Assembly (NCBI RefSeq): GCF_963921235.1
Contig: NC_086097.1
Coordinates: 52,888,001-52,952,000, forward strand
Reading direction: 5' to 3'
DNA length: 64,000 nucleotides
Source: Mobula hypostoma
Taxonomy: Eukaryota
Translations under genes and position numbers: made by a program
Shown: piece after piece, positions 4,347 to 48,191 of the stretch
How positions within the stretch are numbered: the stretch's first letter is position 1
Layout: each line of letters begins with the position of its first letter
Notes under the pieces: generated by a model
Database searches by the model: none
Seen by the model: only the letters and a program-made list of their open reading frames with translations
Told to the model about the DNA's origin: nothing

Positions 4347-4357
4347 CCAAAGTTCAG

Positions 4358-5300
4358 GCAACACACATCAAAGTTGCTGGTGAACGCAGCAGGCCAGGAA
4401 GCATCTCTAGGAAGAAGTGCAGTCGACATTTCGGGCCGAGACCCTTCGTCAGGACCAACTGAAAGAAGAGCTAGTAAGAGATTTGAAAGTGGGAGGGGGA
4501 GGGGGAGATCCAAAATGATAGGAGAAGACAGGAGGGGGAGGGATGGCGCCAAGAGCTGGACAGGTGATTGGCAAAAGGGATATGAGAGGATCATGGGACA
4601 GGAGGCCCAGGGAGAAAGACAAGGGGGAGGGGAGGGTTAAAACCCAGAGGATGGGCAAAGGGTATAGTGAGAGGGACAGAGGGAGAAAAAGGAGAAAGAG
4701 AAAAAGTGTGTATATAAATAAATTATGGATGGGGTACAAGCGGGAGGTGGAACATTAGCGGAAGTTTGAGAAGTCAATGTTCATGCCATCAGGTTGGAGG
4801 CTACCCAGACGGAATATAAGGTGTTGTTCCTCCAACCTGAGTGTGGCTTCATCTTTACAGTAGAGGAGGCTGTGGATAGACATATCAGAATGTGAATGGG
4901 ACGTGGAATTAAAATGTGTAGCCACTGGGAGATCCTGCTTTCCCTGGCAGATAGAGCGTAGGTGTTCAGCAAAACGATCTCCCAGTCTGCATCGGGTCTT
5001 GGCAATATATAGAGGCCACATCGGGAGCACCAGACACAGTATATCACCCCAGCCGACTCACAGGTGAAGTGTCACCTCACCTGGAAGGACTGTCTGGGGC
5101 CCTGAATGGTGGTAAGGGAGGAAGTGTAAGGGCATGTGTAGCACTTGTTCTGCTTACAAGGATAAGTGCCAGGAGGGAGATCAGTGGGGAGGGATGGGGG
5201 GGGACGAATGGACAAGGGAGTCGCATAGGGAGCGATCCCTGCGGAAAGCAGAGGGGGGAAGGGAAAGATGTGCTTAGTGGTGGGATCCCGTTGGAGGTGG
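4358..5300 (-). mobile_element. Penelope-like element, 5'-truncated (GIY-YIG region plus terminal repeat), copy 1
   Basis: Frameshifted YIAKTRCRLGDRFAEHLRS...RLEEQHLIFRLGSLQPDGMNIDF. Candidate TSD accaaagttca on both sides. Confidence 0.85.
4421..4456 (-). ncRNA. Minimal hammerhead ribozyme motif (GAAAT-GTC variant)
   Basis: Reverse complement: GGTC-CTGACGA-AGGGTCTCGGCCC-GAAAT-GTC-GACT. Confidence 0.65.
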
Positions 5301-6476
5301 CCAACCAAAGTTCAAACCAAAGTTCAGGAGCAGCTTCTTCTCCTCTGCCATCAGATGTCATTGTCTATGGACACATGAACAATACCTCACTACTCCTCTT
5401 TTGCAGTGTTCATTCATTTTTATTGTGACTTATACTAATTTGTTAATCCTGCACTGTATTCTGCCACACAAAAAAAAACTTCATGACATTTGTTAGTGAC
5501 AATAAACCTGGGCTTCTGAGCTCAGCTTCTGTAAAGATTTGATAAACTGGAAATAATTTTCCTTGTGATAAGAAACCAAAACAAAAATAATCTATCTCGC
5601 AGTCCATCAAAAGGTGGATCTAAAGGGATCATGTAGGGTATAAAGAGAAGACTGATAAAAGAGAACTGTGCAGATGGCCTTAGGTTACAAGTGCATGAGG
5701 TTAATCACCTGAGCATGTAAAGGGGTAAAGGTTTAAGGTCTTGGAGTGTTTCCATTCATTTAACCAACTCCAGAGATACAACGAGTTTTTCACCAAATAC
5801 TCAACCCTTGGATTATACAGAGAATGGTAAGGAAAGCTCTTCAGAATGCAGCCAATCAAAGCTTTTAAAAAGCAGTTTTAGCAAAACTTGTCTCTTCTCT
5901 TATATGCAGCTCACCTGTCAATGTGATTTTCCACACTGTCCCACTTTGATTTCTCCACTTCCAGTAGTTTTCCATTGAAACATGGCATTATTTTATGACA
6001 CTTAACTCCATATTTCAAATCAGACCTTTTTAACTCTCCAGGCTAAACACGGGGCTGAAAATAGAAAGTGCTGGAAACGTGCAACAGCTCCAGCAGATCA
6101 GTAAGGAAAGAAAGAAAAAGAATGAATGCTTCAATCTTTCAATTGGGTTGAATAAATTCAGGTTATAACTACTATCTCCAATGTTTCAGATAACATCAAT
6201 TGGCGATGATTCTGCTAATGCCACTTACACTTTCTCAACACCTACTTTTGTTCTATTCATCTCATCGCTTTCCCATGTTAACTTAAACCAGCATCCTTTC
6301 CTTTTGTTTTTACTTCCCCTCCCTATTTTTTTACAAAATCTAGTTTTCCCGTACTAAAGAATTGGAAACCTGAAACGTTACCTTGATTGTCTCTCTAGAA
6401 ATGGTTTTTGCAGCATTTTCTAAATTTAAAAAATACTAGTGTGGTTCCAAGAGCAAAGGGTTCCAGAAAACCTGGT

Positions 6477-7458
6477 CACACGAGGAAATCTGCAGATGCT
6501 GGAATTTCAAGCAACACACATCAAAGTTGCTAGTGAACGCAGCAGGCCAGGCAGCATCTCTAGGAAGAGGTGCAGTCGACGTTTCAGGCCGAGACCCTTC
6601 GTCAGGACTAACTGAAGGAAGAGTGAGTAAGAGATTTGAAAGTTGGGGGGGGGGGGGAGCGAAGAGATCCAAAATGATAGGAGAAGACAGGAGAGGGAGG
6701 GATGGAGCCAAGAGCTGGACAGGTGATTAGCAAAAGGGATACGAGAGGATCATGGGACAGGAGGTCCGGGAAGAAAGACAAAGGGGGGGGGGAACCCAGA
6801 GGATGGGCAAGGGGTATATTCAGAGGGACAGAGGGAGAAAAAGGAGAGAGAGAGAAAGAATGTGTGTATAAAAGTAAGTAACAGATGGGGTACGATGGGG
6901 AGGTGGGGCATTAGCGGAAGTTAGAGAAGTCGATGTTCATGCCATCAGGTTGGAGGCTACCCAGATGGAATATAAGGTGTTGTTCCTCCAACCTGAGTGT
7001 GGCTTCATCTTTACAGTAGAGGAGGCCATGGATAGACATGTCAGAATGGGAATGGGATGTGGAATTAAAATGTGTGGACACTGGGAGATTCTGCTTTCTC
7101 TGGCGGACAGAGCGTAGGTGTTCAGCAAAGCGGTCTCCCAGTCTGCGTCGGGTCTCGCCAATATATAAAAGGCCACATCGGGAGCACCAGACACAGTATA
7201 TCACCCCAGCCGACTCACAGGTGAAGTGATGCCTCACCTGGAAGGACTGTCTGGGGCCCTGAATGGTGGTAAGGGAGGAAGTGTAAGGGCATGTGTAGCA
7301 CTTGTTCCGCTTACAAGGATACGTGCCAGGAGGGAGATCAGTGGGGAGGGATGGGGGGGGGGCGAATGGACAAGGGAGTCGCATAGGGAGCGATCCCTGC
7401 GGAAAGCAGAGGGGGGAAGGGAAAGATGTGCTTAGTGGTGGGATCCCATTGGAGGTGG
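6477..7458 (-). mobile_element. Penelope-like element copy 2 (GIY-YIG endonuclease region open)
   Basis: ORF 6911-7519 reads CKRNKCYTC...VIYCVWCSRCGLLYIGETRRRLGDRFAEHLRSV, a Cys-rich linker followed by GIY-YIG. Confidence 0.9.
6574..6609 (-). ncRNA. Minimal hammerhead ribozyme motif, consensus core intact
   Basis: Reverse complement: AGTC-CTGACGA-AGGGTCTCGGCCT-GAAAC-GTC-GACT. Confidence 0.75.
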
Positions 7459-8632
7459 CCAACCAAAGTTCAAACCAAAGTTCAGGAGCAGCTTCTTCTC
7501 CTCTGCCATCAGATGTCATTGTCTATGGACACATGAACAATACCTCACTACTCCTCTTTTGCAGTGTTCATTCATTTTTATTGTGACTTATACTAATTTG
7601 TTAATCCTGCACTGTATTCTGCCACACAAAAAAAACTTCATGACATTTGTTAGTGACAATAAACCTGGGCTTCTGAGCTCAGCTTCTGTAAAGATTTGAT
7701 AAACTGGAAATAATTTTCCTTGTGATAAGAAACCAAAACAAAAATAATCTATCTCACAGTCCATCAAAGGTGGATCTAAAGGGATCATGTAGGGTATAAA
7801 GAGAAGACTGATAAAAGAGAACTGTGCAGATGGCCTTAGGTTACAAGTGCATGAGGTTAATCACCTGAGCATGTAAAGGGGTAAAGGTTTAAGGTCTTGG
7901 AGTGTTTCCATTCATTTAACCAACTCCAGAGATACAACGAGTTTTTCACCAAATACTCAACCCTTGGATTATACAGAGAATGGTAAGGAAAGCTCTTCAG
8001 AATGCAGCCAATCAAAGCTTTTAAAAAGCAGTTTTAGCAAAACTTGTCTCTTCTCTTATATGCAGCTCACCTGTCAATGTGATTTTCCACACTGTCCCAC
8101 TTTGATTTCTCCACTTCCAGTAGTTTTCCATTGAAACATGGCATTATTTTATGACACTTAACTCCATATTTCAAATCAGACCTTTTTAACTCTCCAGGCT
8201 AAACACGGGGCTGAAAATAGAAAGTGCTGGAAACGTGCAACAGCTCCAGCAGATCAGTAAGGAAAGAAAGAAAAAGAATGAATGCTTCAATCTTTCAATT
8301 GGGTTGAATAAATTCAGGTTATAACTACTATCTCCAATGTTTCAGATAACATCAATTGGCGATGATTCTGCTAATGCCACTTACACTTTCTCAACACCTA
8401 CTTTTGTTCTATTCATCTCATCGCTTTCCCATGTTAACTTAAACCAGCATCCTTTCCTTTTGTTTTTACTTCCCCTCCCTATTTTTTTACAAAATCTAGT
8501 TTTCCCGTACTAAAGAATTGGAAACCTGAAACGTTACCTTGATTGTCTCTCTAGAAATGGTTTTTGCAGCATTTTCTAAATTTAAAAAATACTAGTGTGG
8601 TTCCAAGAGCAAAGGATTCCAGAAAACCTGGT

Positions 8633-8765
8633 CACACGAGGAAATCTGCAGATGCTGGAATTTCAAGCAACACACATAAAAGTTGCTAGTCCTGACGAAG
8701 GGTCTCGGCCCGAAACGTCGACTGTACCTCTTCCTAGAGATGCTGCCTGGCCTGCTGCGTTCACT
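8633..8765. mobile_element. Penelope-derived mini element with internal inversion; contains a + strand hammerhead motif at 8688-8723
   Basis: Terminal-repeat sequence only. Flanked by agaaaacc(t/a)ggt (8621-8632 and 8766-8777). Confidence 0.8.
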
Positions 8766-9155
8766 AGAAAACCAGGTGATTTTTTTCTCGGATCAAAGAT
8801 TTTACAACAGTAACAAAACCATTATAGCAAGAAGCAGCTCCCATTAGCAAATTGGTCGAGGGGATGCAGGTTTAAGATTCTGGCTAAATGATCATTGTGT
8901 AATTGTGCTCTGGAATATGTTGTCTGCAAGGGTGTTTGAAACAGAAACGGTGCCCTCGAAAAAAAGTGGATGGGTATTTATAAGAGAAAATAGTTTACGG
9001 GACTCATTCACAGGCGTGGATTGTACTACTGAGAATTAGCCGAATTGATTGATTTATGACTAAACAACTACTACCCACACAAAAACTCAAAATGCTGTAA
9101 ATACTCAGACAGAGAAGCAACATCAGCAGAGAGAAGAAAACAGAATTCATATTTC

Positions 9156-11090
9156 AGCAACACACATCAAAGTTGCTGGTGAATGCAGCAGGCCAGGCAG
9201 CATCTCTAGGAAGAGGTACAGTCGATGTTTCAGGCCGAGACCCTTCGTCAGGACTAACTGAAGGAAGAGTGAGTAAGAGATTTGAAAGTTGGAGGGGGTG
9301 GGGGAGATGCAAAATGATAGGAGAAGACAGGAGGGGGAGGGATGGAGCCAAGAGCTGGACAGGTGATAGGCAAAAGGGGATATGAGAGGATCATGGGACA
9401 GGAGGTCCGGGAAGAAAGACAAGGGGGAGGAACCCAGAGGATGGGCAAGAGGTATATTCAGAGGGACAGAGGGAGAAAAAGGAGAGTGGGAGAAAGAATG
9501 TGTACATAAAAATAAGTAACAGATGGGGTACGAGGGGGAGGTGGGGCATTAGCGGAAGTTAGAGAGTCAATATTCATGCCATCAGGTTGGAGGCTACCCA
9601 GATGGAATATAAGGTGTTGTTCCTCCAACCTCAGTGTGGCTTCATCTTTACAGTAGAGGAGGGCGTGGATAGACATGTCAGAATGGGAATGGGATGTGGA
9701 ATTAAAATGTGTGGCCACTGAGAGATCCTGCTTTCTCTGGCGGACAGAGCGTAGGTGCTCAGCAAAACGATCTCCCAGTCTGCGTCGGGTCTCACCAATA
9801 TATAAAAGGCCACGTCGGGAGCACCGGACACAGTATATCACCCCAGCCGACTCACAGGTGAAGTGTCGCCTCACCTGGAAGGACTGTTTGGGGCCCTGAA
9901 TGGTGCTAAGGGAGGAAGTGTAAGGGCATGTGTAGCACTTGTTCCGCTTACACGGATAAGTGCCAGGAGGGAGATCAGTGGGGAGGCATGGGGGGGGGGG
10001 ACGAATGGACAAGGGAGTCGCGTAGGGAGCGATCCCTGCGGAAAGCGGTGGGGGGCGGGGGGAAGGTGTGTTTAGTGGTGGGATCCCGTTGGAGGTGGCG
10101 GAAGTTACGGAGAATAATATGTTGGACCCGGAGGCTGGTGGGGTGGTAGGTGAGGGCCAGGGGAACCCTATTCCTAGTGGGGTGGCGGGAGGATGGAATG
10201 AGAGCAGATATACGTGAAATGGGGGAGATGCGTTTGAGAGCAGAGTTGATGGTGGTGGAAGGGAGGCCCCTTTCTTTAAAAAAAGGACATCTCCCTCGTC
10301 CTAGAATGAAAAGCCTCATCCTGAGAGCAGATGCGGCGGAGACGGAGGAATTGCGGGAAGGGAATGGCGTTTTTGCAAGAGACAGGGTGAAAAGAGGAAT
10401 AGTCCAGATAGCTGTGAGAGTCAGTAGGCTTATAGTAGACATCAGTGGATAAGCTGTCTCGAGAGACAGAAAGATCTAGAAAGGGGAGGGAGGTGTCGGA
10501 GATGGACCAGGTAAACTTGAGGGCAGGGTGAAAGTAGGAGGCAAAGTTAATAAAGTCAACGAGTTCTGCATGCGTGCAGGAAGCAGCGCCACTGCAGTCG
10601 TCGATGTAGCGAAGGAAAAGTGAGGGACAGATACCAGAATAGGCACGGAACATAGATTGTTCCACAAACCCAACAAAAAGGCAGGCATAGCTAGGACCCA
10701 TACGGGTGCCCATAGCTACACCTTTAGTTTGGAGGAAGTGGGAGGAGCCAAAGGAGAAATTATTAAGAGTAAGGACTAATTCCGCTAGACGGAGCAGAGT
10801 GGTGGTAGAGGCGAACTGATTACGTCTGGAATCCAGAAAGAAGCGTAGAGCTTTGAGACCTTCCTGATGGGGGATGGAAGTATATAAGGACTGGACATCC
10901 ATGGTGAAAATAAAGCGGTGGGGGCCAGGGAACTTAAAATCGTCGAAAAGTTTAACAGCGTGAGAAGTGTCACGAACATAGGTCGGAAGGGATTGAACAA
11001 GGGGGAATAAAACCGTGTCGAGGTATACAGAAACGAGTTCGGTGGGGCAGGAGCAAGCTGAGACAATAGGTCGGCCAGGACAGGCAGGTT
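9156..11090 (-). mobile_element. Penelope-like element copy 3: RT plus GIY-YIG endonuclease, frameshifted and 5'-truncated; hammerhead-like motif at 9220-9255
   Basis: RT motifs MDVQSLYTSIP, QTKGVAMGTRMGPSYA, FLRYIDD, FLDL and VYYKPT; endonuclease YIGETRRRL. Candidate TSD tatttc(a/g)gc. Confidence 0.92.
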
Positions 11091-12112: not shown

Positions 12113-14321
12113 GTATGTTTTTTTAGAAAGAAAAAGTAAAATAGAAATTAATTTTAATGCCTCCTACATGTTTTGGTGGATAATTGACATTATAATCTCT
12201 AGAAACCGCAGAGCATTAGCTAAAGCGTTGATGTACGAACTGTCTTTGTCCTTTTAATATAAAGATAACAGCCGGCTGTGTTCTGAGATGTAAATCAGAT
12301 TGTATAATGCAGATTTCAACTGTACTGGTTCCTGAGAGGGATGAAAACGTAAATATGAAAGACTTGTTTTGTTCTGGTGATATTTAAATCTCGACAGTAG
12401 GAAAAAAAAGTATTTTAACCCGTTTCATTCCGATATTAGATAAATCCCACTTATGACGTTCATTGGTTTGACCGTCTCTTCGTCTCAATGCAACGCTCAG
12501 CTGTTTATTGTAAAATCTTTTTACCGTTTTTTTAAACCTTGAAGTTGCAGCATTTTTCCCCATTCAGTGGTTACTAAAATTACAAAATGAATAGTTCCCT
12601 AAAGTGGATAGAATTGTCAATTCGTTAATCTGATGGCATTAATTTTGTTTTTTTTTAATCTAAACAATTAATGGTGTCGTCTCGCGAATGAAGCGATTGA
12701 GTTATTGACTGGCAATTGGGAGGTAGTTGACAAACGGTTATTAAACTTTTGGGAAGGATTTGGTGTAACAACCCGTTTTATGGCAATGACGTATGCACCC
12801 CAGTGTTCTGGTGTTCACGTATTTAGGGTTGTCAGCTTGGTCCTGCAAAAAGGAATATTCTAAAACTTTTAATTACAGGTAAGGAATCTATATCATGCAA
12901 TTGCAGAATTATTGCATTATTTAAAGTTTTTTCGAGAATGAGTTTGGTATCTTGTTTGCGTGTCCTTGAACAGTTAATGTTAAGAAAATATTACAAGAGA
13001 AAATTGATTTCTAGAGGCGATCCCGCGCCGAGTTTGGACCGTTGGACATCCGGCCACTGCTCCTGATTTCAATTCAACTTTTATCGTGACTAGTTATCTC
13101 CAAAAGTTGCGCAAAATGTTGAAGTAATCAATAATAGATCTCGTATTTCAGGATTATATAAACCATTACGAAAGTGTACTTCCATGTAATTTAGTAACAC
13201 TTCTATTTTTATAGAGAACCGGTGTAATAACTTTTGTCAGACATTGTACATTGGATTTATCAACCTGGTGTGTTAATATCAGTGCCCTATTGGAAAGCTG
13301 TATGCAAAACGTTGCTGTTATCTATTTGATCCGACAGAATTCCATGTTAATACCACACGTGTATGGAGACGCCCATTTCTTGCTTTCTGGACATTTCCAA
13401 ACAGTTAGTCCCCACTTTCATCTCATTAAGAGCTGTTTCGAGTCTTCAAGGATCCAAGCTTTTGGCTTGAGTAGCGCTTGCATCTTGTCTGTATCCTGCG
13501 TGTTTAAATTTCTTTTCCCCGAAGAACAGTGGGTGTTGAGCATTACATGCTTCTAACGATTTTTGCAACAAAGGGAGGTTGGGGGTTGTTTCAGGGTTAA
13601 GGGAGGAAAATGTTGGCTCCTTCAGCCGTGAGATTGATGCTGGGGCAAGCACCAGAGCATTTGACCTAGTCCTTCTGAGATCAAACAGAGGCCATAAGTG
13701 TGTTGGAGCTTTGCACAAACAGTGTTTGTTAAATAAACTTATTGAGAACAATAATTTGTAATTTGGCTTATAAACTGCAGTGCAACTGAAATTCTACAAT
13801 ACAACTGTTTAAACCCCGTTGCGTTTCTGCAAGTATTTTAATGCATTAATGGGATATCAAATAATACTGATATTAGATTGAAGCATTTATCTGCTTGGTA
13901 GACAATTATTGACACTGGTCTGTAGAAAGATATTGGTTCCGTGCTAGGAGTGGCCAGCGCTTAGCACCTGTCACTGGAACCTATCATAGTCTTTGATTTG
14001 TACTTGTAAGATGAGATGAAAATCAGGCATTAATGGATAACCTTTTACAGTTTTTGGATTGAATCTCAGTTTTTGCTGAGTGCAAATGTAGCTTTCAAAT
14101 CTGTAAATTAGTATCTAAAGGACTAAAATCTTCTGAGCTATTGATGTTCTGTGTTTATTTACGTTATTACACAGTGCAAAGCTCTTTACAAACACTTCTA
14201 CAGGTCTAAAGCTCCTTCCAATTATTAAGGCAAGAGTTTACATCTTCCATCCTCACTGGGTGATGAAATAAATTACATTTGACTTGTGAATCCCTAAAAC
14301 TGAAAACATTAAATGTTATTA

Positions 14322-21285: not shown

Positions 21286-22924
21286 TAAAACAAGGTAGTC
21301 CCTGCATCGTTATCCCTCTTCTGAAAGATATATTTTAATTATATATTTTAGACACATGCTTTACTGATGAGGTGATTAAGGAAGCATTTTGTGTCATAGT
21401 GCATGATTTATTATCATTCATAGACAATGTATCAAGCCTTAATCCTTCAGATTAAGATTACTCAGATTTATTTCTCAGTAGTCCTGTTAGTATTTTAAAT
21501 AATGAGCCCATGGGGCTTACTAGTTATGGAAGTTAATTGATGTCTTTTTATATTGGTGGTCAGAAGGAAGCAAAGGAGGTCAGATAAGAAGTCTGTTTAT
21601 TCATTACTCATGAAGGGTCTTTCTGTATTTGCCAATCCTTCGGAACACATTATTTTCAGAGGAAGCATTGTATCTTTTACCAGGAAGAACTCTACAGTCA
21701 TTTCTTCACTTCAGTGTGTGATTGTTCACAACCCCAAAAGTTTTATTACCAGGTGATGCGTCTTATTTTTATGAATTGGTTTCAGAATTTGGAGCTTATA
21801 ACCAATTGTTTTTTTTTAACCTCATTATGGACCATTGTTAGCAATACTTGAATCCACTCGAGCTGCGGAGAGATTGAATTGGATTTGAGTATTTCCACAC
21901 TTCCTTGAACTAGCAAATCTAGCAACCTGGTGTTTCATTAGAGAAACAAAGGTAGATTTATAAGTATTAGCAGATCCTATAATGTGCTTCCCCTTCTCCC
22001 TCTTTTGGTGTTATACTACCATTCCCTAAGTGTCAGTGAACTTTTCTCAGGGACCCTGCTTGTCGGTGCCCATGCTCGTGAAAAGTGACTTGTGTTGGTA
22101 TCAAGCAGTAGTAAATCAAAGCAACTGGACTTGCTGTGTTGTCTAGAAGACGCTTTGCCACTCATCCAAGAGGCTTCTTCACTTCTAATCCATGGTGGGT
22201 AGTTCGCTGGCTTTTAAACTTGAGTTGTTTAAAGGTATAGCAATTGTAGAAGCTATCTTTGTCGAACCGGAAAACCCATCCCTGAACAGGGGGTGGGATA
22301 CAACGTTACCTATCGGCTACTTACAATGCAGTCCTCACATCTCTACCCCGGCGTCTCCACAACAGTTCACACATCCATTCATGCAAAAATAAGACTAATG
22401 ACCCTCCCATTACCTCTACAACGCTTAAAGACCCTCATTTTCATTTTTAAAATCTTTTTATTGATATATAATCTTCTACAGCTATAAAGTACAAACGTTC
22501 AACAAATTAGTATTTATATAATTAATAAAGCTGAAAAAAACTTGTATATGCTAATGAAAAAGAAATTTTATATAAGAAACAGATCGTTTTATGAAGCCTC
22601 TATTTCCTTAATTCTTAAAAAGAATAAAGATCCTACTGATTGTGCATCATACAGACCGATATCTCTTCTGAATGTAGACTCTAAAATTTTTTCAAAAATT
22701 CTAGCAACTAGACTGGAGAAGGTGTTACCTCAAATTATTTCCATGGATCAAACCGGATTTATTAAAAATCGCTATTCATCCTTTAATATTAGGAGGTTAA
22801 TGAATATTGTTTACACCCCCTCATTTACTACCCCGGAATGTACTATCTCATTAGATGCTGAGAAAGCCTTTGACAGAGTTGAATCGCCTTATTTATTTAA
22901 TGTTCTTGAGAAATTTAATTTTAA

Positions 22925-23035
22925 TTTGACATTTATATCTTGGATTAAATTGTTATTTTACTTTGACATTTATATCTTGGATTAAATTGTTATTTTACTT
23001 TGACATTTATATCTTGGATTAAATTGTTATTTTAC
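22925..23035 (+). repeat. 3 x 37-bp perfect tandem repeat inside the L1 RT
   Basis: tttgacatttatatcttggattaaattgttattttac repeated three times. Confidence 0.95.
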
Positions 23036-24219
23036 TCCCCGGTAGCCTCGGTTTGTACAAATAATTATAGATCTCCTTTTTTTCGTCTTTTTCGTGGTAC
23101 TAGGCAAGGTTGCCCTCTTAGTCCTTTACTATTTAATATTGCTCTTGAACCTTTAGCAATTGCTGTTCGTGACTCGCCAAATATTGTTGGTATTACCCAT
23201 GGAAACGAAATACATAAATTATCATTATATGCAGATGATTTGTTGTTATACATCTCTAACCCGGAGAAGTCAATTCCTGCTATCCTAGATCTGTTAGCTC
23301 AATTTAGTAACTTCTCTGGTTGCAAATTGAATCTTAGTAAGAGTGAATTATTCCCTTTAAATAAGCATGTACCTAATTATGGACGTTTACCATTTAAATT
23401 GGTTACTGATTCATTTATATATTTAGGGATAACAATTACGAAAAAATATAAAGATTTATTTAAAGCTAATTTTTTTACCTTTAATTGATCAGATTAAATT
23501 TTTATTTACCAAATGGTCCCCAATCTCTTTGTCTTTGATTGGTCGGATTAATGCTATTAAGATGATCATTTTGCCCAAATTTTTGTACATATTCCAATCG
23601 GTACCAATTTTTATCCCAAAATCTTTTTTTGATAACGTAGATTCAAAAATTTCCTCATATATTTGGCAGAATAAAAATCCTAGGTTAGGTAAAGGGTATC
23701 TACAGAAATCTAAAAAGGAGGGGGGGCTCGCCCTCCCAAATTTTAGATTCTATTATTGGGCAATTAATATTCGATATTTAAAATTTTGGTTACAAGATTT
23801 GGACGCATCTTTAAACCCTCATTGGGTAAATCTTGAATCTAGTTCATTACAAGGGTTTTCCTTGGGTTCGGTTTTAGGAACTTTACTTCCTTTTACTTCT
23901 GTTAAATCATATAAACAAATGAACATCCCAATAGTTAAGCATACTTTACGTATATGGTTTCAATTCCGAAGATATTTTGGGTTTAATCAATTTATTCTAG
24001 CAAGTCCCATTATATCAAATTTTCTTTTTCAACCTTCCACGATGGATCAAGCTTACTTTGATTGGAAAACCAAAGGTATAATATTTTTAAGCAACATACA
24101 TCAAAGTTGCTGGTGAACGCAGCAGGCCAAGCAGCATCCATAGGAAGAGGTGCAGTCGACGTTTCAGGCCGAGACCCTTTGTCAGGACTAACTGAAGGAA
24201 CCTAACCTAACCTTCAGTT

Positions 24220-24255
24220 AGTCCTGACGAAGGGTCTCGGCCTGAAACGTCGACT
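24220..24255 (+). ncRNA. Minimal hammerhead ribozyme motif; predicted cleavage after 24251
   Basis: AGTC-CTGACGA-AGGGTCTCGGCCT-GAAAC-GTC^GACT. Confidence 0.75.
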
Positions 24256-24512
24256 GCACCTCTTCCTATGGATGCTGCTTGGCCTGCTACGTTCACCAGC
24301 AACTTTGATGTATGTTGCTTGAATTTCCAGCATCTGCAGAATTCCTGTTGTTTGCGTTTAAATTCACTACTGCGAAGCCTCTTCCGGTGATGCCTACACC
24401 GAAGAAGTTTAGATCCTCTCTTCGACGGGAGTTCAGTGAAACCATCTCTCACTGCTCCCCATCTGTAATTTCATCGGCTCTTCAACTTTTCGACCACACA
24501 CTTCCTTCAGTT

Positions 24513-24548
24513 AGTCCTGATGAAGGGTCTCGGCCTGAAACGTCGACT
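24513..24548 (+). ncRNA. Minimal hammerhead ribozyme motif; predicted cleavage after 24544
   Basis: AGTC-CTGATGA-AGGGTCTCGGCCT-GAAAC-GTC^GACT. Confidence 0.75.
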
Positions 24549-27500
24549 GCACCTCTTCCTATGGATGCTGCTTGGCCTGCTGCGTTCACCAGCAACTTTG
24601 ATGTGTGTTGCTTGAATTTCCAGCATCTGCAGAATTCCTGTTGTTTGCGTATAATATCTTTTCGCGATTTATTTTTGGATAATTGTTTTATGTCTTTTGA
24701 TCAACTTTCTAATAAATATAACTTACCCAGATCTCACTTTTTTAGGTATCTACAGATTAGAAACTTTTTAATTACTGTTTCCCCTAATTTTCCACACCCA
24801 TATCCAATGGACACTTTGGAAAAAATCTTAGATTTAAATCTCTCTCAGAAAAGTGTAGTAGCAATTATATATAATATAATTATGAATCTATGTCCTGATG
24901 CTTCTAATAAAATTAAAGCTGACTGGGAAAGAGAACTTGAGATTAATATACCGACTGAAAAATGGGAAAAAATTCTTCAGTTGGTGAACTCATCCTCCAT
25001 ATGTGCTAAGCATAGGTTGATACAGTTTAAAGTAGTGCACAGGGCTTATATGTCCAAAGATAAACTATCTCGTTATTACTCTTATATTAATCCAATATGT
25101 GACAGATGCCATTCCGAGATAGCTTCTTTAACCCACATGTTTTGGTCACGTCCCTTGTTGGAGAAATATTGGAAAGATATTTTTGATATTATTTCAACGG
25201 TCCTAAATATAGACTTATAACCTCATCCAATTACTGCTATCTTTGGACTACCAATGATAGATTTAAATAATTTAACCTCTTCATCACGAAGGATGATTGC
25301 ATTTCTTTCTTTAATAGCTAGAAGGTCCATTTTGTTGAATTGGAAAGAGATTAATCCTCCTACTCTATTTCATTGGTTTTCACAAACTATGGTGTGTTTG
25401 AATTTGGAGAAAATTAGAAGTGCAGTTTATGACCCTTCCATTAAGTTTGAAAAAACTTGGAGGCCATTCATTCAGCATTTTCATTTGATGTAATTTGATC
25501 ATTTCCAAATTTGTTTTATCTCTCTGTACTGTTGTTGGAGGGGAATGGAGTCGTCGACACTAAGGTTTTCTTCTTTTCCACTTTTAAGTTGTTAGTTTTG
25601 CCCAAGTCTTTTAGTTTGTTGATTAAGTTTGTTTTTCTTTGGGGATGGGGTTTGCTTTTTTTTTGTTTTTTTTTTCTTTTTCATGATTTTTTTTCCAGTT
25701 TTTTTTTGCTTTGTATTATCCGTGGTTAATTCTACATGTTTGGGAGCTTTGTTGATTTACACTACTTGGTTTTGCAATTACTTTTTTAAGTGTAACAATA
25801 TATCTCCTATTATTTGTATTATTGCTATGTTTTGTTTCTATATTTTGAAATTAATAAAAAGATTGAAAAAGAAAGAAAGAAAAAGAAGGAAAAAGAGAAC
25901 TCCAACTAACTAAAAAAAAACCCACTAACTACAAAAAAAAACCATTAGGAACCAACACCCAGAGCAATACATCTTAGAATCATCTATATATATATAAAAT
26001 ATATATATTTTAAAAAGAAACGCAAAATCATATTTATATAACATAAAATTGGAAGGAAACCATACAAATTAATTCAAATTAAATGATAATATTTGGCAAA
26101 AGAGCCCCACCTTCTCTCAAAATCGAATCAGGGATCAAAAGTTCTACTTCTAATTTTTTCCAAACTAAGACGTAACATTACTTGGGAAAATCATTGAATT
26201 AGTGTAGGAGCAGAGGTATCTTTCCACTTCAATAAAATAGCCCTTCTTGCCAACAATGTAACAAATGCAATTACATGTTGGTTTGAAAATGAAATACCCT
26301 GAATATGATGCGGAGCTATTCCAAATAGAGCAGTCAATGTATTAGGTTGTAAATTAATTTTCAAAGCTTTAGAAGTTGTAGAAAATATTTCAATGAGGGA
26401 CATGACCAGAACATATGTGACAGAGTAGCTACTTCATTTTTACACCTATCACAATAATTGTCTATATTAGGAAATATTTTGGATAACCTCTCATATAAAG
26501 ACCCTCAGATGATTGCTATACCTTTAAACAACCCCGTTTATAAGATTGAAAACTACCCACATGGATTAGAAGAGAAGAAGCCTCTTGGATGAGTGGCGAA
26601 ATGTCTTCTAGACAACACAGCAAGTCCAGTTGCCTTGATTTACTACTGCTTGGTATACAATGACCTGGATGACTGAGAGCCTTCATGGATAATTGTGTTG
26701 GAACTTGTCCAAGCAAGAGATTAAGCCGTAATTAGGATAAAAACATGAAGTCAACTGGAACCCTCCATTGGAAATGTTTGTAAATGTCCACCTGACTGTC
26801 ATTGCAGACCAGGAATCAAACTAGGAGTTCTGTTCATTGCTTAGCATTGTGCATTTTCCAACTGGACCATTGAGGTGTCAGTGAATGTTACAATGGTATT
26901 AATTAACACTTCCTGATATGCAATAACGTGATATTGTATAAAGTACTGATGGGTAGAACATTAATTGACATTTCTAGATGCTTGGAATGGGAAGCTGAGT
27001 GACGCTGTTCACAGCCCTCGAGTATCAGTGTAATAATTTTGTAGTACTCCAGAACTCCATAGAAATGATCATGACCCCAAACAATGCCTGTCACCTGCAC
27101 ATACCTTTTGTACATCTTTAACAAAGTCTGATTGGCAAGTTCTGTGAGTGATTGGGTTTTGGTATTTCTCGAATATCAATGCAGCCAAGTATATACAAAT
27201 CATTAGCTAACCCCATGTTGCATGGTATCTAATGTGAATGATTATTAAAAGATTTTATGCAGCTGTTTAATTTGTACAGCTATCTGTAGGTAAACTTGGT
27301 GCTTTTTTATCCTTCCATTTGTGTTGAGGCTTGTCATGTCTTTTTTCAAAAATGTGCTGCACATGGTTAAATATAGTGCTGCAGCAGGGCACTGACGTGA
27401 TTTCTAAAGATTTCATTAATTTAGCTATAGCAAAGAACCTCTTTAAGATGGGTTAAGAAGATGAGAACAATTAGATTCATTACAGCATGACCGCAAGAAT

Positions 27501-37409: not shown

Positions 37410-37459
37410 GTTATTTTCAAGGCTAAAGCCAAATATTGTCCAGAACTTAACAAATACAA
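37410..37459 (+). CDS. GPR137C: GPR137C exon 2
   Basis: tttttgcag|VIFKAKAKYCPELNKYK|gtgagt. 50 nt, phase 0 to 2. Confidence 0.88.
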
Positions 37460-47602: not shown

Positions 47603-47803
47603 AGCGAGGAAATCTGCAGATGCTGGAATTTCAAGCAACACACACAAAAAAAATGCCGGTGGACGCAGCAGGCCACGCAGCATCTATAGGAAGAGGTACA
47701 GTCGAGATTTCGGTCCTGATGAAGGGTCTCGGCCTGAAACATTGACTGTACCTCTTCCTATAGATGCTGCCTGGTCTGCTGCGTTCACCAGCATTTTTTG
47801 TGT
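47603..47803. mobile_element. Palindromic Penelope-derived mini element with a hammerhead-like motif at 47712-47747 (GAAAC-ATT variant)
   Basis: Inverted terminal-repeat arms; CTGATGA...GAAAC core on the + strand. Confidence 0.8.
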
Positions 47804-48191
47804 AGGAGTTGACATTTCAGTTTGAAACCCTGGATCAAAATAAGAAATATTGACAATGCATTTCCACTCTCAGATGCTGCTTAACTTACTGAGTCCCTCC
47901 AGAACATTGTTTATTACTTCACCTTTTCTTTCCATCCTCCCTTCTGTATCTTGATATTTACTTGATTCCTGGCTTTGCCTGGTGTTAATGAGAGGTCATT
48001 GATCTGCAGTGTAAATCCCCTTTTTCTCCGCTATTGCTACTTGGCCAGCTGGTTATTCCAGCACGTTCTGAATTTCAGATTTCCAGCATCTGTCGTTTTT
48101 TTTTTTTGCTTTTCAGTTACCTAGAAACTGCAGTGGATTAACATTGAGAATTATCTGTTGAACCTTTGATTAACGTGTATTCTTTCTTCAG

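Follow-up and report, generated by a model that had tools for sequence, protein, structure and literature searches.

A Penelope/Poseidon insertion with tandem hammerhead motifs in GPR137C intron 1 of Mobula hypostoma, likely formed by repeated copying of a short RNA

Introduction

Two hammerhead ribozyme motifs lie on the same strand in a GPR137C intron of Mobula hypostoma, in a 64,000-nt stretch of DNA which we refer to as the window (contig NC_086097.1, positions 52,888,001 to 52,952,000 of the forward strand) and whose coordinates are used throughout. A preliminary description of the window, made from its letters, read the unit as an internally deleted Penelope element with the architecture of a nascent retrozyme, which could release a small or circular RNA from the intron. 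The locus raises the question of how such a tandem arose, and whether it can release or spread anything. Our preferred answer, which we consider probable, is that it is a single Penelope/Poseidon insertion, whose RT likely copied a short, uncleaved RNA (approximately -44 to +248) three times during one integration, which has no second copy in the assembly and for which masking within the host pre-mRNA is predicted. Signed positions are given relative to the cut of the parent ribozyme, +1 being the first base after the cut, and junctions are written as ORF-side base/pLTR-side base.

Two hammerheads in a three-armed insertion

Sequence inspection of 24220-24650 confirmed two minimal type-I hammerheads with intact cores, on the strand and with the predicted cuts first described (Table 1). 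In hammerhead 1 the 5' strand of stem I (AGUC, 24220-24223) is followed by the core CUGACGA (24224-24230), the second copy having CUGAUGA; in both, a stem I of 4-5 bp (3' strand GACU) and a 3-bp stem II are followed by GAAA-CG-UC. Loop III is absent, and the 4-nt palindrome A15.1-C-G-U16.1 can build stem III only by pairing two copies with each other, in keeping with the dimer-type ribozymes already supposed. The motifs lie in a direct repeat of 151 nt with 97% identity (3 differences in 146 shared columns) at a spacing of 293. A 28-nt core has 49,010 exact matches in the genome, against 0 for a control, and is not a chance occurrence. Rfam returned no match at the gathering threshold in the window, and no hammerhead among ten weak matches, and identification as a ribozyme therefore relies on core and pairings and on the minimal hammerhead without loop III described for Penelope-like elements (PMC4209133, partial text).

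Table 1 Features of the insertion and its surroundings (window coordinates).
Feature	Position	Strand	Remarks
Host LINE	22488..25880	+	Frameshifted, 5'-truncated; A-rich tail, matches to RT and zf-RVT; split by the insertion
TSD, left copy	24077..24084	+	TATAATAT; 9 nt with the preceding G; perhaps 13 nt with one base lost
Inverted arm (third copy)	24089..24200	-	Element +69 to -43
Spacer	24201..24210	.	10 nt, CCTAA twice; joins the head-to-head arms; not parent sequence
Arm 2	24211..24499	+	Element -41 to +248; holds the pLTR end, hammerhead 1, the tail and the ORF start
Hammerhead 1	24220..24256	+	Minimal type-I; predicted cut after 24251
ORF start	24390..24499	+	First 36 codons of the parent 991-aa RT + GIY-YIG ORF
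Stem-loop	24399..24478	+	Element +148 to +227, just 5' of most junctions
Junction	24499..24501	+	+248/A/-44; alternatively 3-4 nt CAC(T) microhomology with one substitution
Arm 3	24501..24649	+	Element -44 to +105: hammerhead 2 and tail
Hammerhead 2	24513-24549	+	Predicted cut after 24544
TSD, right copy	24650..24657	+	

Both motifs are thus real, and the two-motif picture had overlooked a third, inverted copy, the host LINE and the TSD. The inverted arm is complementary to ribozyme 1 and its tail, ends 10 nt upstream of arm 2 and carries a third hammerhead in which core G8 is changed to A and which, judged by this change, is likely dead. The spacer between the head-to-head arms resembles a short insertion from templated repair. 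The 5' ends of the three arms fall at -43 (inverted), -41 (arm 2) and -44 (arm 3), and all three carry a private base, +19G, seen in 5 of 225 records, all from this locus, while 94 carry A. One TSD and a shared private base imply one insertion from one template. The arms differ pairwise by 3-4 bases, which implies a young insertion; one difference, at the family-polymorphic position +61, sets arm 3 apart from the other two and counts against a single-template view.

The interrupted element, which we take to be a LINE of the L1/Tx1 type, allows the empty site to be read: the joint 24075>24649 is present in other copies of the host LINE, with 8-9 letters fitting both sides (three of four sequencing runs). 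Its RT region also holds a 37-nt sequence in three tandem copies (22911-23036). The Penelope start codon opens a 276-codon frame (24390-25217), through ribozyme 2 into the remaining host LINE ORF, which is probably accidental. More truncated or inverted Penelope copies, of the same or older families, lie upstream of and inside GPR137C (4350-11090, 8639-8770 and 47607-47804).

The parent element and its family

Among thirteen retrieved copies are full-length elements whose ribozymes lie about 3.5 kb apart. The natural full-length copy L038 has a 3518-nt unit with a 991-aa open frame, which starts with the peptide previously noticed between the two cuts; of this ORF only the first 36 residues are kept here, and the unit is without an RT, as had been said. 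The parent is a young element, and the three arms are 96-99% identical to L038 (arm 2, 98.6%), which bears out the Penelope origin. The parent ORF matches RVT_1 (E 3.5e-5) and GIY-YIG (E 3.3e-4), both weak and under Pfam cut-offs, and had no match in a PDB sequence search. We presume the clade to be Poseidon, from domain order.

In the first 30 core matches the 3' ends fall mostly at +57 to +70 or +100 to +113, and 11 of the 30 5' ends at -26 to -65. Head-to-head arms mostly pair a short (+57 to +70) with a long (+100 to +112) tail, in agreement with two start sites. Such head-to-head pairs are common in the family, eight being counted by eye less than 500 nt apart among the first 100 core matches, for none of which was a same-strand exact-core neighbour found within 1 kb. 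Full-length copies with a short 5' pLTR also exist (L118, L202), and in L088, L111 and L149 tail pieces of 28-62 nt are repeated head to tail at the insertion 5' ends, which resembles a re-start of the enzyme at the tail sites. As the main source of tandems, tail re-initiation was rejected: two tail ends gave 3 and 3 matches, from ~49,000 cores.

The stem-loop at +148 to +227 is a candidate protein-binding signal; in the parent it scores z -4.25, for a window hand-picked by eye, and at this locus a change at 24473 breaks one pair.

Junctions across the genome

The junction of this locus was found at a single place in the genome, both with exact matching and with up to two mismatches allowed. 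Being unique, it implies that the unit has not spread, which opposes the retrozyme-type mobility first envisaged, and a junction confined to one locus is the outcome that the preliminary description had itself named as speaking against it.

Similar layouts with other junctions are not rare. A first search, biased to this layout and contributing part of the arm-end sample used below, returned 25 distinct loci in its top 28 rows, this locus included, with mostly different junctions. As a less biased sample, an ORF 20-mer at +179 yielded 97 loci among the first 100 of 907 matches, of which 64 were examined and the other 33 set aside, their ORF running on beyond +327 according to a second 20-mer; a 20-mer at +110 contributed 32 loci not already sampled, from the first 100 of its 910 matches. 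Same-strand hammerhead pairs less than 520 nt apart were present at 13 of 64 loci in the former sample and 6 of 32 in the latter, with both hammerheads intact in five pairs of each. Together with L020, this makes 20 pair loci in 305-330 Mb, which scales to about 200 genome-wide, a figure that is an extrapolation rather than a genome-wide count and a lower bound, as only holders of the exact 20-mer were sampled. Nearly all loci with pairs have their own junction.

Sixty-four junctions could be placed, counting the siblings L094 and L100, leaving out the unreadable L104 and L113 and excluding loci in which the ORF piece merely ends. The ORF side fell at +114 to +200 in 9, +201 to +234 in 5, +235 to +301 in 44, +302 to +400 in 2 and beyond in 4, with the peak just 3' of the stem-loop. 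On the pLTR side, 22 lay at -26 to -65, 33 at -66 to -200 and 9 further away; none of the 64 lay 3' of -26, and none was at the ribozyme cut. The median unit was 385 nt, 52 of 64 measuring 190-520 nt.

One junction, +269/-32, recurs at five loci (L004, L009, L021, L022, L025) with different flanks and at least three haplotypes; a spreading family was rejected on account of these haplotypes, and the recurrence fits what is expected from preferred RNA ends. Stem I of the hammerhead begins at -32, where solo insertions also commonly have their 5' end. Four further pairs share a junction with different flanks, L093/L094, L099/L100, L217/L218 and L151/L158, and these count against our preferred explanation. 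The first pair lies 1.07 Mb apart on C1 and shares its inversion point too, the second 70 kb apart on C1 and shares the same 26-nt deletion, the third 835 kb apart on C50; in all three the flanks are unrelated and the tail ends differ. Segmental duplication was rejected for L093/L094 and L099/L100, as flanks are not shared, and such close siblings may stem from composites mobilised again locally, or from a single complex that inserted twice.

Probable repeated copying of a short RNA

The Poseidon enzyme nicks both strands of AT-rich DNA, starts internally at two adjacent 'tail' sites and uses uncleaved RNA; for the anole element, uncleaved RNA is the main template and the RNA requires ORF sequence 3' of the start sites (PMC11167929). 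The architecture in Table 1 could be produced by the same steps. The enzyme would nick both strands of AT-rich DNA and start inside an uncleaved RNA at two adjacent tail sites. From the first nick, extension would run from +105 to the RNA 5' end, after which the copy would jump to the 3' end of the same RNA (+248) and run to the 5' end again. From the other nick, extension would run from +69 to the RNA 5' end, and repair would join the two ends via the spacer. The template would be a fragment of the pLTR-ORF boundary of a full-length copy, trimmed just beyond the protein-bound stem-loop, and such trimming would explain unit sizes of 200-500 nt; by analogy with the anole system, short RNAs may be trimmed to a protein-bound core.

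Repeated copying of a linear RNA is consistent with where the arms end. Among arms that pass the core and then stop, 13 of 30 ended within 3 nt of the junction point of their own locus, compared with 4.1 expected (p ~5e-5), in a test that leaves out the -31 to -33 peak. In a permutation version 24 of 48 arm ends matched their own junction, compared with 7.4 expected; both tests exclude arms stopping inside the core or crossing the junction, and the ends were hand-read from BLAST ends. In L232, for example, an arm starts at -86 and the junction is also at -86. Two loci have two junctions each, +267/-160 and +268/-888 in L185 and two different ones in L026, which indicates jumps to a preferred 3' end rather than one circle.

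The template at this locus looks linear, yet the family is probably not uniform, and both linear and circular templates probably occur in it. Two or more extra bases were present at the junction in 17 of 61 single-pass loci and in none of 17 multi-pass loci (p 0.017). In the latter the same junction is repeated with at most one extra base, often on both inverted arms, and these clean junctions suggest covalent, circular templates for part of the family. Other loci carrying such a junction, as masters for the non-splice multi-pass loci, were absent for L008 and L172, the two searched of about 14.

The same observation can be applied to this locus, in which case the template was a covalent RNA circle of ~293 nt, its ends ligated at +248/-44, copied by rolling reverse transcription. 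At twelve sibling loci (L008, L078, L093, L116, L127, L137, L139, L140, L172, L194, L197 and L238) each pass and both inverted arms carry the same junction, extra bases being nearly absent, and circular intermediates have been proposed for Penelope-like elements (PMC4209133, partial text). A circle has no end at -41 or -43, however, where the other two arms stop, at most 3 nt from the junction, and the junction is neither GT-AG nor at the ribozyme cut; we therefore consider a circle unlikely here. Not being GT-AG, the junction also speaks against a back-spliced circRNA as the template.

We give a slightly lower standing, again an unlikely one, to the loss of 3.2 kb by microhomology-mediated DNA deletion from a full-length element inserted first. 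The CAC(T) overlap at the junction can be read in this way, which counts against repeated copying; deletion of this kind has been described for Penelope copies in a rotifer (PMC3846280, partial text), and the existence of full-length copies with short 5' pLTRs also favours it. Breakpoints of deletions would however be expected to scatter over 3.2 kb, whereas 67 nt on one side hold 44 of the 64. Deletion also leaves unexplained why -44 coincides with the 5' ends of the other two arms, as at other loci, and why the same junction is found on both inverted arms. The junction pattern across loci is better accommodated by re-copying of short RNA than by the internal deletion originally assumed.

GT-AG junctions in part of the family

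Three junction types coincide with GT-AG in the parent: 213/-65 (L217, L218), 276/-34 (L151, L158) and 374/-34 (L140). Chance predicts GT-AG at ~0.09% per junction, compared with five loci among roughly 95, some from targeted searches, pointing to spliced or back-spliced templates as judged from these sequences. The donor at +277 needs a G allele, which was present in 9 of 9 sampled parents with the four-site haplotype of L158, and in a tenth parent with three of the four sites. The junction is passed four times in L151 and twice each in L158 and L218, with 5' ends inside the unit, as would be expected from back-spliced circles. In L218 the first arm differs from the next two at +9 and +28, which is hard to square with a simple monomer circle; in L151, a later duplication is suggested by alternating bases. 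A fourth splice junction predicted from a +452 donor had no matches. The Drosophila virilis Penelope has an intron that ends at helix I (PMC4209133, partial text).

L151 (G000:C2:157.816-157.818 Mb) and L158 (G000:C50:58.412 Mb) have a 310-nt unit with different TSDs, cores intact in part and no inverted arm. Descent of one from the other as master and daughter on two chromosomes was rejected, as their haplotypes differ at 4 sites. On these features they are the best candidates for live retrozymes in the family.

Relation to known elements

By every feature tested the locus is a derivative of a Penelope-like element: an RT + GIY-YIG parent ORF, a pLTR minimal hammerhead with two tail lengths, and a TSD insertion with an inverted pLTR. 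It shares these with published Penelope/Poseidon insertions, as well as the head-to-head arm, a TSD of 8-13 nt, an AT-rich target and a partial tandem (PMC11167929; PMC3846280 and PMC2377424, partial texts). It is unlike them in that just the first 110 ORF nt lie between two pLTR ends, and a preferred jump point 110-160 nt into the ORF is undescribed in PMC11167929 and in the available parts of PMC3846280 and PMC2377424.

Non-LTR retrozymes offer the other comparison, and the likeness noticed at the outset holds: tandem type-I hammerheads 293 nt apart, in a unit within their 150-450 nt range, no RT, a TSD of more than 4 nt and sequence from a Penelope-like pLTR (PMC7229834 and 10.64898/2026.07.22.740005, partial texts). 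With two complete motifs, the locus falls within the operational retrozyme definition in the available part of that preprint. Unlike retrozymes, it is one unit with a private junction, a ribozyme lacking loop III and an inverted masking arm; with its junction at 1 place, a single junction at the locus and no array, it lacks the multi-copy feature, and for this reason we do not file it as a non-LTR retrozyme. Although it has the layout of a nascent one, it is most likely an inert by-product.

The preliminary description knew of no such element in this lineage, but the same bioRxiv preprint describes non-LTR retrozymes with a mean length of 363 bp from one chondrichthyan genome, arguing for their derivation from Penelope-like elements (10.64898/2026.07.22.740005, partial text). 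It proposes retrozyme birth via local tandem duplication of the terminal repeat, in contrast to this locus, where the tandem appears to have been made at insertion. In the literature covered, with subscription papers, Repbase and Dfam outside its scope, we found no account of a preferred jump point, of GT-AG Penelope-like units or of a Mobula Penelope, although the consensus set or species list of the preprint may include a Mobula Penelope family.

Other reverse transcriptases show related behaviour. The enzymes of R2 and group II introns jump end to end between templates, from a 5' end to a 3' end, often with a few extra bases, and in L1 twin priming two primers on one RNA give an inversion. 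The copying proposed here differs from these in starting internally and in jumping back onto the same RNA, to the part lying 3' of the start site.

Taken alone the locus is of little import, one intronic insertion among 49,000 ribozyme-bearing copies. The junction set is of interest to retroelement and ribozyme specialists, as ~200 units could show the birth of ribozyme repeats: the junctions of a young family give readable RNA ends, with short templates not joined at the ribozyme cut, a preferred 3' end beside a candidate binding hairpin, and three GT-AG types. Tandem formation in Penelope-like elements has been called open (PMC2377424, partial text), hammerhead-cut circles have been proposed (PMC4209133, partial text), and the available part of the 2026 preprint ties retrozymes to pLTRs without a sequence-level mechanism (10.64898/2026.07.22.740005). 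The family supplies a sequence-level model, amenable to testing, of how Penelope tandems form and retrozymes are born. A broader reading, which we regard as possible and put forward tentatively, is that the genome records hundreds of independent retrozyme births, in which the enzyme re-copies short pLTR-ORF RNAs, setting the 200-500 nt unit, and a subset of the templates are circles made by the spliceosome rather than by the ribozyme, by back-splicing from ORF donors at +213, +276 and +374 to acceptors just 5' of the hammerhead. If true, this jump would account for partial-tandem pLTRs in all Penelope-like elements, with units that lack an inverted arm, for example the 310-nt array L151, as live starting points.

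Unlikely release of RNA from the host transcript

Exon 1 of the host gene is 100% identical to a Mobula birostris protein named GPR137C. It ends near 12118 and exon 2 starts near 37420, placing the unit in intron 1 in the sense orientation, in agreement with the earlier placement. In the pre-mRNA, the inverted arm and the ribozyme 1 region are predicted to form a near-perfect hairpin of 113 bp (24086-24323), and in the folding model the ribozyme 1 core pairs with the inverted arm with a probability of 1.0. Forcing the double hammerhead cost +22 to +26 kcal/mol in 24211-24650 alone and +86 to +92 kcal/mol with the inverted arm included, energies that ignore tertiary contacts and protein help. 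As the inverted arm is transcribed first and is predicted to pair with ribozyme 1, the initial proposal that the intron releases a small or circular RNA is not supported: a 293-nt circle from GPR137C pre-mRNA is unlikely under this model, in which the predicted intronic product is the hairpin rather than a circle. Transcripts that begin in the spacer would avoid the masking arm, but no promoter is evident. In contigs from four of 22 sequencing runs, none of the 22 recorded as RNA, no joint among those listed corresponded to the 293-nt circle or to the junction of this locus.

These results bear on the original view of an active nascent retrozyme, in which the double hammerhead excises 293 nt and the piece is circularised and can reinsert. 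Both cores and the ACGU palindrome are intact, all double-hammerhead pairs at the locus are Watson-Crick or G-U, the folding cost without the inverted arm is like that of two sibling units (+22 kcal/mol), the tail start sites and stem-loop are kept, and dimers of axolotl retrozymes cleave well (PMC7229834, partial text). The view nevertheless appears very unlikely, given the unique junction, the predicted hairpin in any host-gene transcript, only 41 nt of pLTR upstream with no evident promoter of its own, and an excised 293 nt that fold no better than shuffles (z -1.43). Published cleavage is also poor or protein-dependent: minimal hammerheads of Penelope-like elements cleave poorly (PMC4209133, partial text), the anole Poseidon ribozyme cuts only in the presence of its protein, and reads ending at the cut position were absent (PMC11167929), and among Xenopus dimers 1 of 9 cleaved (10.64898/2026.07.22.740005, partial text). 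Nesting of two or three independent insertions, in which each later one homed into the pLTR of the first, is highly improbable. In vitro, the anole enzyme does nick the ORF-pLTR junction of its own element (PMC11167929), but a single TSD surrounds the whole block, with no inner TSD, and the private base is common to all three arms.

Two features of the intronic RNA may be added. The 113-bp hairpin is a likely substrate for A-to-I editing or Dicer, and the pLTR pyrimidine tract and CAG at 24501-24510, a splice acceptor in sibling junctions, lie in sense in intron 1 and could seed a cryptic exon.
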